Of a DNA stretch of 31,954 bases, positions 11,135-23,809 are shown in pieces. Within the stretch, counting starts at the first letter, position 1. The number at the start of each line of letters is the position of its first letter. The translations under genes were made by a program, and so were the position numbers. This stretch comes from a virus (taxonomy: Duplodnaviria; Caudoviricetes), in the IMG/VR virus record IMGVR_UViG_3300048598_000578, positions 1-31,954 of that record. One strand, given 5' to 3'. The notes beneath the pieces were generated by a model. The model searched no databases. It was not told where the DNA came from and saw only the letters and a program-made list of their open reading frames with translations.

Positions 11135-11380
11135 TCAGTGGTTGGGCGCTTCGCGCTGCGGCCCGCCAGGGCGGGGGCCTGCCACGGTCTCCGGGGCGAT
11201 GCCGTCGCCAATCACTTCCAGGCGGCCCTCGTCGAACCACTCGGTGCGGTTGATGCTTCCGTCCTTGGCGGGAGGGGCGAGCGAGTACTGGTCGCAACCG
11301 GTGAGGTACTGCGCGCGGCCAGTGACGATTCCCTCGAAGCCGGTGATCTTGTCGCGGGCCTTCTTGCCGAGCTGGATCAT
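11135..11380 (-). CDS. Conserved-looking phage hypothetical protein, 81 aa
   Basis: [32 protein letters not shown]...WFDEGRL; ATGA overlap with the SPFH gene. Confidence 0.75.
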
Positions 11381-12219
11381 TTGCCCGCTCCTACGCCGAT
11401 GAAGGGGAGGGGCGAGCCCTGGGCCATGTACTGCGGGAGCTTGCCGTCCCACTTCTCCACGGCATTCAGCGTCACCACATCGGGGTTCGCGCGCAGGGCC
11501 TGGGCACGGATCTCGATCGCCTTGGCGTCAGCCTGGGCCAGTGTCAGCTTCGCGTCGGCCTCACCTTGGGCTCGGGCCCGCTCCTTGTCCGCCTCGGCCT
11601 TGGCCTGGGCGACCTCATTGCGGCGCTGCTCGGCCATCTGGGTGGCCTGGATCTTGGCGTTCAGGCTCTGGGTGACCTGCGGAGGCAGCACCAGGTCGGA
11701 GGCGTAGTAGATGCGCTCGACGTTCAGCCCGATCGGCGCCACCTGTTCGCGCACGCGCTTCTCGACGGCCAGCAGGAGATCGCTCTTGCCGGCGCCGTAG
11801 ACGCTCTCCACCGGCAGCTTCGATGCGATGTCGTTGAAGGCGTCGCGCACCATGTTCCGCAGGAACTTGTTGGTGATCTCGTCGATGCCTGCCCGGTACT
11901 TCTGGAACAGCGTCGTCACCTTGTCGGGGGACACCGAGTAGGTGATGCCGACGGCGCCGCCGACCTTCATGCCCTCGACGGTCTGGAAGCTGATCGCTTC
12001 CTCGCCGCCCCAGGTCTCGGTCTGGGTGAAGGTGGGGAACAGGTACAGCTCTTCGTTGAGCCCGACCCAATAGCGGCCGGTGCCCACCTCCTTCATGTCG
12101 ACGCCCTTGTCGGAGCCGTACAGGTTGACGATCACGCCGACGTTACCGGCGGGGACTTTCGAGCAGGCCGACAGGGCGGCGAGCAGGCACAGCAGGAAGG
12201 CGGTGGTGATCCGCTTCAT
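11377..12219 (-). CDS. SPFH/Band-7 (prohibitin-like) lipoprotein, 280 aa
   Basis: Lipobox LSAC; KVPAGNVGVIVNLYG; C-terminal AEA coiled coil (AKAEADKERARAQGEADA) and EKWDGKLP. Confidence 0.9.
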   Translation of the reverse strand: MKRITTAFLLCLLAALSACSKVPAGNVGVIVNLYGSDKGVDMKEVGTGRYWVGLNEELYLFPTFTQTETWGGEEAISFQTVEGMKVGGAVGITYSVSPDKVTTLFQKYRAGIDEITNKFLRNMVRDAFNDIASKLPVESVYGAGKSDLLLAVEKRVREQVAPIGLNVERIYYASDLVLPPQVTQSLNAKIQATQMAEQRRNEVAQAKAEADKERARAQGEADAKLTLAQADAKAIEIRAQALRANPDVVTLNAVEKWDGKLPQYMAQGSPLPFIGVGAGK

Positions 12220-12473
12220 TGGTCTTTCTCCAGGTTGGTGGTGGTGCGTTTTTCCGCGCATGCGCGGAATTTCAGGACGATGTGCAGGGCGAGGCAGCCG
12301 GTGCCGATCAGCCACACGGCGGGGGCCAGGAAGCCCAGGCCGACCAGAACCGAGTCGGCGCTGCTGACCATGGCGGGCGCGATGCCGCCGAGCAGGGCGA
12401 TGGACAGGGCGGCATAGGCCAAGGCGGCGAGGCAGATCAGGAACAGGCGGCCAGGCCGCATCAGGTTTTGCAT
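12216..12473 (-). CDS. Small two-TM membrane protein
   Basis: Two hydrophobic helices; AAGGAG RBS; ATGA overlap with the SPFH gene. Confidence 0.75.
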   Translation of the reverse strand: MQNLMRPGRLFLICLAALAYAALSIALLGGIAPAMVSSADSVLVGLGFLAPAVWLIGTGCLALHIVLKFRACAEKRTTTNLEKDQ

Positions 12474-12583
12474 GTCGTCTCCTTTCTCCGGGCAAGCCGA
12501 TCCCCTGCCGGGGTACTTGGCTTCCCGAAAATCTGTGATAGGTGGTCACCGGACTGCGCTCGATCAGGAGCGCACGCCGCTGA

Positions 12584-12982
12584 TCACGCGGCTATCAGTC
12601 CTGCCTCTTCGCAGCGGCGGCCGGCCTGGCGCAGTTCGGTCTTGCGCTCGGGCGGGCGGCGGTCGCGGCGCATGGGATCGTCGTCGAGGATGGGGTGGAG
12701 TGCGGCCATGCCTGCGAGCATGACGACACAGGCCGGCGCGAGGATTCCGCGCTTGAACGCCTCGGCGACGAGGGCTGCCCGGCGGGTGATCCCGAGCTTC
12801 GTGGTAGCCGCCAGTACGCGCTTATCCACGGTGGCCGGCTGCATGTCCAAATCGCGAGCAAGCTCCTTCGAGGTACGACCAGCAGCGATGCCCAGGACGC
12901 ACTGCAGCTCCCGCAGGGAAAGGCCCTTGCCAAGGAAACCAGTGAGGCCATGTGCGGTGATGCTGGTTGTTGCAGTGGTCAT
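12584..12982 (-). CDS. Stand-alone LuxR-type HTH protein, first gene after PL
   Basis: LSLRELQCVLGIAAGRTSKELARDLDMQPATVDKRVLAATTKLG; GGAG RBS; no sensor domain. Confidence 0.85.
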   Translation of the reverse strand: MTTATTSITAHGLTGFLGKGLSLRELQCVLGIAAGRTSKELARDLDMQPATVDKRVLAATTKLGITRRAALVAEAFKRGILAPACVVMLAGMAALHPILDDDPMRRDRRPPERKTELRQAGRRCEEAGLIAA

Positions 12983-13051
12983 AAACATTGCTCCATGCAG
13001 ATGCTTAAATTTCTCGCCTTGCTGGCGGCACATCGCTTGATGTTGAGAAGA

Positions 13052-22450: not shown

Positions 22451-23004
22451 CAGGAATCTATCGAGACGTGCTGCCGGCGATCGTCCGCGTCCTGGCCGCC
22501 GATGCCATCGACAACACGGCGAAGCAGAGCTGGCAGAAGTTGATCGATCGCAAGGTCGACGGCGGCTACCGCGCCTTGCTGTCGGCCCGGGACCAGTTCG
22601 AGTTCGACTGCATGCTGCACGCCCTGCTGCACCGCGAGCTGCTGCCGGTGGAGTGGGATGTGCTGTACGCCCGGTATTCGACGCACAACGGCCGGCGATT
22701 GCAGGCGGTGAGCCGGATGCCAGCCAGGATCTCCAGCCCGGCGCCGCGTATCTTCCTGACCTACGCGGTATCGAGCTGGTGCATCCCGAAGCTGAAGGGG
22801 AAGGACGGCAAGCGCTCGACCGATGTCCTGGTGCTCTCTGACAAGTGGTACGACATCAACGAGTGGGACACCGAGGCGCGGCCTGACTCGACCCGGAGTC
22901 GATGGCGGCGAGATATCTGGAAGGCGCTGGATGCGTTGGAGGAGCAGGCCATGGTGCATGTGACCGAGATCCTGGAGCGCGAAAGGTTGCTGGAGGTGGG
23001 TTGA
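22447..23004 (+). CDS. Putative late-gene antiterminator (Q-like), 185 aa
   Basis: Last early-right gene, followed directly by a promoter-like sequence, a terminator and the lysis gene. Call is based on position; start MTGIYRDV at an ATGA overlap. Confidence 0.6.
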   Translation: MTGIYRDVLPAIVRVLAADAIDNTAKQSWQKLIDRKVDGGYRALLSARDQFEFDCMLHALLHRELLPVEWDVLYARYSTHNGRRLQAVSRMPARISSPAPRIFLTYAVSSWCIPKLKGKDGKRSTDVLVLSDKWYDINEWDTEARPDSTRSRWRRDIWKALDALEEQAMVHVTEILERERLLEVG

Positions 23005-23029
23005 CTTGTGTGAGCGTTTGAGCGAAATT
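23001..23029 (+). promoter_or_regulatory. Putative late promoter PR' with a direct repeat in the spacer
   Basis: TTGACT-17 bp-GAAATT (weak -10); TGAGCG at 23011 and 23019. Confidence 0.55.
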
Positions 23030-23072: not shown

Positions 23073-23099
23073 AAACCCGGCCATCGCGCCGGGTTTTTT
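23073..23099 (+). terminator. tR'-like intrinsic terminator
   Basis: AAACCCGGC-CATCGC-GCCGGGTTT running into a T6 tract. Confidence 0.85.
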
Positions 23100-23120
23100 A
23101 TTGCCCAGAGATTTGGAACC

Positions 23121-23260
23121 GTGGTCGGCACGGCCCGCAAGGGGGAGCCGAACACCGTCTGCCGGCGGTGCGGTGATACGGGAAAACACCGGCAGAACAG
23201 GCGTATCGCCATCCTCGATACTCCCGGTGCGGCCTGTTCGGACGGCGTGGAAAGACACGC
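23121..23260 (+). ncRNA. Putative structured RNA elements (GNRA hairpin, pseudoknot, further hairpins)
   Basis: Stems found by eye: 23121-29/23147-55 with a GCAA loop; 23158-65/23189-96; 23172-80/23202-10; GCGTG/CACGC at 23245-23260. Confidence 0.5.
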
Positions 23261-23266
23261 ACTCAA

Positions 23267-23418
23267 TGCAGGTGAATGCCCAGGCTGATGGGCTAAGTCG
23301 GTAGAGGCGATTCGCAAACCCGTGAGGTCACTGCGAGTCAACGCGATGAGAGGCGGAGGTACGCGACCCAGCGAGCCCGCCCGTGAAGCAGGAGATCAGC
23401 GCCTGCCCCCTGCACCCA
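23267..23418 (+). ncRNA. tRNA-shaped ncRNA with an expanded middle domain
   Basis: Acceptor-like stem, D-like and T-like arms in tRNA positions, complementary loops, ACCCA 3' end, and a terminator directly after. No anticodon arm or TTCRA motif. Confidence 0.6.
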
Positions 23419-23425
23419 TACCAAG

Positions 23426-23450
23426 GCCCAGCCATAGCGCTGGGCTTTTT
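23426..23450 (+). terminator. Intrinsic terminator before the holin
   Basis: GCCCAGC-CATAGC-GCTGGGC-TTTTT. Confidence 0.8.
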
Positions 23451-23479: not shown

Positions 23480-23809
23480 ATGATGAAGATGTCCGACAAG
23501 CCCGAGCTCCTGGCCATTGCGCTCGCGTGGCTGAGCCAGCACGCCCCTGTGCTTTACGCCGGCGCCCTGTCCTTCCTGGTCGCTGTGACCCGCGTCATCT
23601 ACGGCGGCGGCACAAGACGCCAAGCGCTGCTCGAAGCCACGTTGTGCACCCTGATCACCCTGGGCCTGATCCCGGTCTTGGAGTGGCTCGGCCTGCCCCA
23701 GAACATGGCTACGGCGGCCGGCGTGTTCACAGGCTTCCTCGGTGTGAAGAAGCTCGCCGAGCTTGCCGACCGCGTGGCCGACTGGAAACTGCCGAAGCGT
23801 GACAGCTGA
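23480..23809 (+). CDS. Lambda-S-family holin with dual-start motif
   Basis: Three hydrophobic segments; RVIYGGG...LLEATLC...FTGFLGVKKL; basic C-terminus; M-M-K-M start. Confidence 0.9.
   Translation: MMKMSDKPELLAIALAWLSQHAPVLYAGALSFLVAVTRVIYGGGTRRQALLEATLCTLITLGLIPVLEWLGLPQNMATAAGVFTGFLGVKKLAELADRVADWKLPKRDS

Follow-up and report, generated by a model that had tools for sequence, protein, structure and literature searches.

What is the element at positions 23267-23418 of a 31,954-nucleotide (nt) phage sequence, which resembles a transfer RNA (tRNA) at both ends and carries another domain in place of the anticodon arm? The whole stretch, here called the window, belongs to IMG/VR virus record IMGVR_UViG_3300048598_000578 (Duplodnaviria; Caudoviricetes), and a first-pass annotation of its letters had described the element as a tRNA mimic with a Watson-Crick contact, or kiss, between D-like and T-like loops. 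Comparative data strongly support an RNA architecture that is real, widespread and apparently undescribed, in which a predicted kiss of 4 base pairs (bp) joins conserved ends around a variable middle, the payload. With moderate confidence we read the element as a tRNA-shaped carrier RNA that would be processed by the host and would display its exchangeable middle as a decoy or mimic.

In isolation the element strand folds as described. Its stems, D-like arm, T-like arm and terminal ACCCA lie exactly where the first-pass annotation had placed them (Table 1), and the two stems attributed to the payload (23309-23316/23332-23339 and 23352-23356/23377-23381) appear in the predicted fold. The folding z-score of -1.75 is modest evidence on its own. 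In longer folded stretches the acceptor stem was outcompeted by other pairings (pair probability 0-0.27). Cloverleaf geometry without the kiss is common, with 41 sites in the window and 12-27 per shuffle; geometry together with an in-register 4-bp kiss was found at one site in the window, the element itself, and in 1 of 25 shuffles. The acceptor-like stem carries a U.C mismatch (23273/23408) and may gain an eighth pair, U23267-A23414. The mismatch at 23408 is rare, being present in 2 of 215 members parsed by a procedure that favours paired stems, and the CCA begins at +10 past the T stem. As had been expected, ARAGORN did not recognise the element in the window and Rfam returned no match over its body even at E<=10; one weak Rfam hit (E 8.6) touches just the last 15 nt and the terminator. 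Since a single sequence provides modest evidence, we judge the element to be real because of the comparative data.

The kiss was assessed by searching all of the viral collection for variants at D-loop positions 2-6, with the T arm located by stem and acceptor pairing alone. Stretches with a changed base at positions 2, 3, 4, 5 and 6 numbered 60, 16, 15, 5 and 15, respectively. After removal of 93 matches below the parse score and 59 redundant ones, 367 D-arm matches left 215 distinct elements, all parsed without use of the loop sequence. A change of G to A at D-loop position 2 (D2) was paired with a T-loop U in 22 of 28 cases, compared to 19 of 187 otherwise (those as G.U), and U at D2 met a T-loop A in 2 of 3. 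Similar shifts were found at D3, where C-to-U variants had a T-loop A in 4/6 versus 1/209, and at D4, where U-to-C variants had a T-loop G in 6/7 versus 2/208. A comparable rise was absent from the off-register positions -2 to -6, and the freely varying last loop base differed in 4/7 D4 variants versus 43/158. In a set thinned so that each combination of acceptor and D arm occurs once (n=109), Fisher p values were 5e-9 (D2), 1e-5 (D3) and 3e-7 (D4) in a statistic that is not tree-based, and the compensated cases carried 16, 4 and 6 different acceptors.

Variants at position 5 were paired in 0/2 cases and those at position 6 in 2/8, both as G.U with an unchanged T loop; moreover, a sixth kiss pair would open the D stem. 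On the strength of these variants we rejected a six-bp kiss as a family feature. The supported kiss is GCUG/CAGC, in which three pairs covary and the fourth is nearly invariant. The six complementary loop nucleotides that the first-pass annotation had noticed are present in the window, and the covariation it lacked exists in relatives at three positions, which back only the 4-bp core. Among kiss pairs, G.U (25) exceeded A.C (6), which favours the + strand as the RNA. Together with the enrichment of CCA and the co-orientation with tRNAs reported below, this bias and the in-register covariation of several pair types argue for selection on an RNA fold. A covarying Watson-Crick elbow would be a natural alternative solution to the L-shape of tRNA.

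The acceptor/T helix was analyzed in 144 distinct elements chosen regardless of their acceptor (268 D arms, 169 of them with a T arm found by sequence). Acceptor pairing was 0.91-1.0 through position 7, fell to 0.65 at position 8 (0.40 in shuffled sequences) and reached background by position 10. A 7-bp acceptor stacked on a 5-bp T stem, as in tRNA (RF00005) and as claimed at the outset, is therefore found in the family, the window copy having 6 of 7 pairs. An anticodon stem with a 7-nt loop was absent from the window payload, and neither the canonical 7-nt T loop (UUCRA) nor a matching model score was found; the T loop has 9 nt in 147 of 171 elements. A CCA starting at +9 to +11 was encoded in 40 of 144 members, compared to 11-15 in five downstream windows, so that the proposed CCA-type tail is enriched and belongs to a minority of members. 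RNase P and the enzymes that trim 3' ends recognise a CCA-bearing acceptor/T helix of 12 bp. The modelled geometry of the element fits cleavage by RNase P 5' of the acceptor-like helix. In one source (PMC5499578), E. coli RNase P is described as cutting phage RNAs that resemble hairpins and lack a T loop, P4 CI and P1 C4 among them.

How widespread is the architecture? The D-like-arm pattern matched 121 stretches in 3/64 of IMG/VR, which corresponds to an estimated ~3000 viral stretches, and 93 of the 109 matches with a paired D stem parsed as whole elements. An exact 22-mer was found in 115 stretches of GTDB genomes, of which 81 parse as elements; its carriers are mostly gamma- and betaproteobacteria, judging by the titles of 80 of the 115. 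In these searches the fixed letters of the pattern are conserved by construction, and the family D stems were selected for pairing, which limits the evidence from D-stem pairing. The sequence of one member matched 404 phage records, many via one arm alone or the middle alone, and, at E<=1 and counting partial matches, 1020 of 5426 complete E. coli genomes; among the best 30 of these 1020 rows there was no annotation at the element. Members are carried by the classic phages P1, D3 and HK620, which makes this large family directly testable. The D arm was not found in K-12 MG1655, P22, Gifsy-1, Gifsy-2 and lambda with 2 mismatches allowed, nor in T5, 933W, Felix O1 and T4 with 3 allowed. It had been suspected that the motif was already catalogued. 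No entry was found in Rfam, and a literature search that included six motif strings found no description of the family, subscription journals being largely outside its coverage.

Across proteobacterial phages the expected combination of conserved ends and a variable middle was recovered: payloads are 6-171 nt long (median 74), and 212 of them fell into 181 clusters. The conserved ends set exact boundaries for ~180 payload types and thus provide a ready list of candidate phage RNAs. Exchange can be followed among 62 viral loci that encode the Q-like protein of the window. One locus (L294) is identical to the window. In L292/L293 the 262 nt upstream contain 4 differences and the downstream sequence is the same, and the consensus arms enclose an unrelated 101-nt payload; the variable middle envisaged by the first-pass annotation has thus been swapped between sister phages. 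In L295 and phage Solano the neighbouring Proteo-phage-1 RNA, the terminator and the holin are kept and the element is absent.

A comparison of 165 payloads with masked loci gave 8 matches, namely 4 self-matches due to incomplete masking, 1 variant element, 2 matches to Det7 and 1 to L091. The Det7 matches came from the payloads of L054, which is identical to HK620, and L276, which agree with the Det7 pseudo-tRNA at 27/31 and 30/31 nt; the Det7 copy of the HK620-type payload sits inside canonical D and T arms. As both frames carry the same cargo, this is the best sign that the tRNA elbow and the kiss elbow do the same job. The payload of L010 matches a free-standing cassette adjoining the element in L091. 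This payload (481-559, - strand) also gave a hammerhead HH9 match (28 bits, E 0.002, below the gathering score). The hammerhead-like segment occurs inside a payload in L010 and is free-standing in L091 and L377 (~1794-1837). Pieces of tRNA are present in the payloads of L033, L175 and L256. In L033, a Lys(UUU) anticodon arm sits one base past the D stem. Annotated tRNA-Lys genes make up most of the best phage matches of L033, each match being weak. In each of five payload clusters with >=3 members, 2-7 two-sided changes were counted on the structure predicted for that cluster.

Comparison thus establishes the stems, the covariation of the kiss, the 7+5 bp helix, the enrichment of CCA, the replacement of the middle and the same middle in an ordinary tRNA frame. 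On this basis we propose that the conserved ends form an L-shape held by the predicted 4-bp loop kiss, which would replace the canonical elbow and close the fold whatever the intervening sequence. The element lies beyond a promoter-like segment and a first terminator-like hairpin, and its transcription therefore probably needs antitermination, that is, late lytic growth. Transcripts of the late leader would arise after Q-like antitermination, RNase P would cleave at about 23267/23268, and the 3' end would be trimmed to CCA or receive CCA by addition, so that the leader transcript would yield a stable RNA through the tRNA-processing enzymes of the host. Recombination in the conserved arms would swap the cargo, which probably acts as a decoy or mimic against host defences that target tRNA or other RNA. 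We propose this role because of the lytic timing, the turnover of payloads and the Lys anticodon arm. A more far-reaching version, which we put forward tentatively and consider somewhat unlikely, is a modular RNA display in which a standard tRNA-shaped chassis, equipped with a Watson-Crick elbow of its own and loaded by recombination, presents hundreds of payloads as interchangeable counter-defence decoys. In such a display, doubtful as it is, anticodon arms, ribozyme-like and other folds might be the RNA equivalent of swappable moron genes.

Several results weigh against the carrier reading. The element is present in only 3/62 loci with the same Q-like gene (L294, L292/L293). Payloads are singletons in 157/212 cases, one is only 6 nt long, and their structure is weak overall (median z -0.43, 6% below -2, n=145); the structures used to count two-sided changes in the payload clusters come from those same few sequences. 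Anticodon-like hairpins occur in 9/171 payloads (shuffles: mean 3.0, maximum 7), and only the one in L033 is in the tRNA position. The CCA is missing at +9 to +11 in 104/144 members. The window payload had no homologues in phages, plasmids, 67 genomes from the genus of genome G001 or viral contigs, except for the identical L294. A recognisable mimic was not seen in the window payload, and targets were identified for none of the payloads. Contigs of runs X3, X7 and X9 gave flat coverage over L054, and contigs cannot show RNA ends; run X15 contained 0 reads on L054, and reads of X19, X22, X14 and X17 do not cover the element of L018.

The same diversity of payloads is what one would expect if the chassis itself were functional. 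Here a tRNA body with a non-canonical elbow would soak up proteins that recognise acceptor or CCA ends, e.g. tRNA-modifying toxins, and the middle would be tolerated filler acquired from adjacent cassettes. The arms are indeed conserved past the needs of pairing, with the D-loop variants counted above, from scans with a narrower stem pattern, set against ~3000 consensus stretches, and the L010 payload, being a stand-alone cassette next to the L091 element, indicates that capture of a neighbour can occur. Nevertheless, we regard this explanation as unlikely: HK620 and Det7 retain one payload inside frames that are unrelated to each other, payload families turn up again in different hosts with two-sided changes, and conservation of the arms could also reflect their use as recombination anchors.

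The positions of members bear on a further alternative, a t-element-like processing signal in cis. Overall, members occur in late operon leaders, early operon leaders and tRNA clusters. Among 53 loci with 78 flanking open reading frames, hand-selected from 80 genome loci, 9 have a late-leader order with Q-like, phrog_3412 or lysis neighbours and 5 have cI or N-like neighbours; 3 more share a downstream gene family with one of those loci, and the remaining loci have unknown or other genes. In HK620 the element lies between qut and tQ, in P1 downstream of tRNA-Asn and tRNA-Thr, and in D3 between tRNA-Met and tRNA-Gly under a hypothetical open reading frame. ARAGORN tRNAs are near the element on the same strand for 14/215 elements and on the opposite strand for 1/215. 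Such leaders, and the location of members between other RNA cassettes, would suit an RNase P cut that shapes the leader messenger RNA or frees Proteo-phage-1 or tRNAs, with an inert excised piece. This is rather improbable, as L295 and Solano retain Proteo-phage-1, terminator and holin without the element, the Proteo-phage-1 core is close to only 5/215 elements, and a processing signal has no need of conserved payload families.

A decayed tRNA, or a recombination site or scar at the DNA level without an RNA role, would agree with the tRNA pieces in three payloads, with arms that mark swap boundaries and with the rare acceptor mismatch of the window copy. We consider it very improbable and disfavour it strongly in view of the in-register covariation with several pair types, the excess of G.U over A.C, the co-orientation with tRNAs and the CCA enrichment. 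C4 and CI act by antisense pairing. A regulator of this type, with the middle pairing to a target in the same phage, is the least probable explanation of all, because the longest exact antisense match of the window payload within the 32-kb window is 9 nt (direct: 10 nt) versus 10-14 nt in 40 shuffles and Rfam gave no C4/CI family match, although C4 and CI are likewise phage RNAs cut by RNase P (PMC5499578).

The proposed carrier RNA works like tRNA, transfer-messenger RNA (tmRNA), C4/CI and the T4 RNAs rnaC/rnaD and is not a member of any of these groups. With canonical tRNA it shares the 7-bp acceptor, the 5-bp T stem, the contact between D and T loops, the CCA in a minority of members and the anticodon arm in L033. 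Unlike tRNA, it has a 3-nt linker, a 5-bp D stem, a 6-nt D loop, a 9-nt T loop and a Watson-Crick kiss, and nearly all members are without an anticodon. In tmRNA (RF00023) a tRNA-like domain also brackets a larger domain that replaces the anticodon arm; however, the window element is much shorter, has a D-like stem and is negative with ARAGORN and Rfam. A tag frame, pseudoknots and a tmRNA model match were not found in it, the payload reading Ala-Asn-Pro-stop after its only GCAAAC. Frames resembling a tmRNA tag (Ala-Asn...Ala-stop) were observed upstream of the element in L291 (HK620, ~2250-2330), L376 (P1, ~280-360) and L377 (Klebsiella phage Magnus, ~1225-1300), where they follow a conserved segment; these regions gave weak tmRNA-family Rfam hits below the gathering score.

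C4 RNA (P1/P7) and CI RNA (P4) are similar to the element in being RNase P-cut phage RNAs without a canonical T loop (PMC5499578). They differ in that an Rfam match and, within the window, an antisense target were not found for the window element, which does not lie beside an antirepressor gene; their family models had no hit in the window or in 57 locus scans. T4 rnaC and rnaD (species 1 and 2) are likewise small phage RNAs (119-139 nt) in a tRNA cluster, and rnaC ends in a T-arm-like hairpin. However, rnaC keeps the canonical GGTTCGAATCC T loop and has no sequence in common with the element, and in the absence of homology and of any D-arm match in T4 at 3 mismatches we ruled out rnaC/rnaD as the same motif. 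The function of these stable RNAs C and D is given as unknown in two sources (PMC9697503, PMC3014915). The present family bears on this old question of what non-decoding RNAs do in phage tRNA clusters.

The Kuttervirus pseudo-tRNA (Det7 gene 194, 'tRNA-OTHER') also has a tRNA frame with a replaced anticodon loop and a payload nearly that of the HK620 and L276 members. In contrast to the element, its D and T loops are canonical, it lacks the Watson-Crick kiss and it is annotated as a pseudogene. The tRNA region of Det7 (L290 530-1000) contains several unannotated cassettes with acceptor-like closing stems and CCA-like tails, and one of them has motifs in common, by eye, with the payload of the P1 element (L376 1228-1273). 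Proteo-phage-1 (RF03044) is a phage RNA of unknown function and a neighbour of the element; it differs in being a separate element 70 nt upstream. Antiterminator RNAs of the put type (HK022) lie directly after the promoter. We rejected this class for the element, which starts ~240 nt past the promoter-like site and beyond the first terminator, and HK022 24000-40751 gave no match to its motif. The M3 RNA of phi80 was also rejected, being an annotated oop homologue, and the motif is absent from phi80 26000-46150. Processed non-coding RNAs are described for PAK_P3 in PMC10914365; in the region read by eye, such arms were not seen in them.

The gene content of the window (integrase, cI, replication genes, terminase, portal and capsid) is that of a temperate prophage of the Pseudomonas type, and its late leader is similar to those of Pseudomonas phages. 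The order of features is Q-like gene, promoter-like segment, terminator-like hairpin, Proteo-phage-1, element, terminator and holin (Table 1).

Table 1. Features of the late leader region of the window and parts of the element.
Feature	Positions	Strand	Basis or remark
Gene at Q position	22456-23004	+	phrog_3412 (function not assigned in PHROG); flanked by replication genes and the holin
Promoter-like segment TTGACT, 17 nt, GAAATT	23001-23029	+	By eye; similar sequence after the gene in relatives
First terminator-like hairpin with T run	23073-23099	+	By eye; also in sister phages; absent from scan list
Proteo-phage-1 RNA (Rfam RF03044)	23119-23197	+	60.9 bits versus gathering score 42
Acceptor-like stem, 5' strand GCAGGTG	23268-23274	+	Family pairing 0.91-1.0 at positions 1-7 (n=144)
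D-like arm	23278-23293	+	Kiss bases in loop 23284-23287 (GCUG); stem variants keep pairing, loop covaries
Payload, 94 nt, standing in for anticodon and variable arms	23294-23387	+	Unrelated 101-nt payload in L292/L293
T-like arm, 9-nt loop	23388-23406	+	Kiss bases 23397-23400 (CAGC); stem variants keep pairing, loop covaries
Acceptor-like stem, 3' strand CCCCTGC	23407-23413	+	6/7 pairs with 5' strand; followed by ACCCA 23414-23418
Intrinsic terminator-like hairpin	23423-23448	+	Terminator scan
Holin, first late gene	23480-23809	+	phrog_126, PF05106

The product of the gene at the Q position had no Pfam match. A lead from the ESM Atlas (score 0.94) placed it in a cluster in which 13% of members have PF06323 (Phage_antiter_Q), and the gene likely encodes a late antiterminator. 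The promoter-like segment, which in relatives is also found after inserted genes, is likely the late promoter; a consensus promoter scan returned 0 promoters, the segment being below its threshold. Just downstream of the Q-like gene lies a hotspot for insertions (L296, L297, L301-L305), with unrelated small genes before or after the conserved promoter-like segment.

Proteo-phage-1 adjoins the element in the window and in L061 and occurs without it in L295, L298, L300 and Solano. In L295, L298 and Solano the stems 3' of the model differ in sequence and yet keep their pairing. The conserved structure of Proteo-phage-1 (window 23103-23265) seems to have roughly double the length of the Rfam model and ends with a GAAAGA-loop hairpin followed by a CCA-like tail.

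Besides, the early left arm of the window (11377-13033, - strand) encodes an SPFH/Band 7 protein and a LuxR-type helix-turn-helix protein, and in L216 (460-1985) the element is flanked by a BstA abortive-infection gene and an N-like gene. A second bracket motif (ACAACAGGTAAGAGCA ... TGCTCTTTCCGTTGT) surrounds other variable inserts in L376 (~1400-1465), L291 (~2410-2515) and L377 (~1388-1510). Its 3' strand can coincide in part with the element's 5' acceptor strand, and the core of the motif is near 24/215 elements; possibly, this motif represents an RNase III-type frame.
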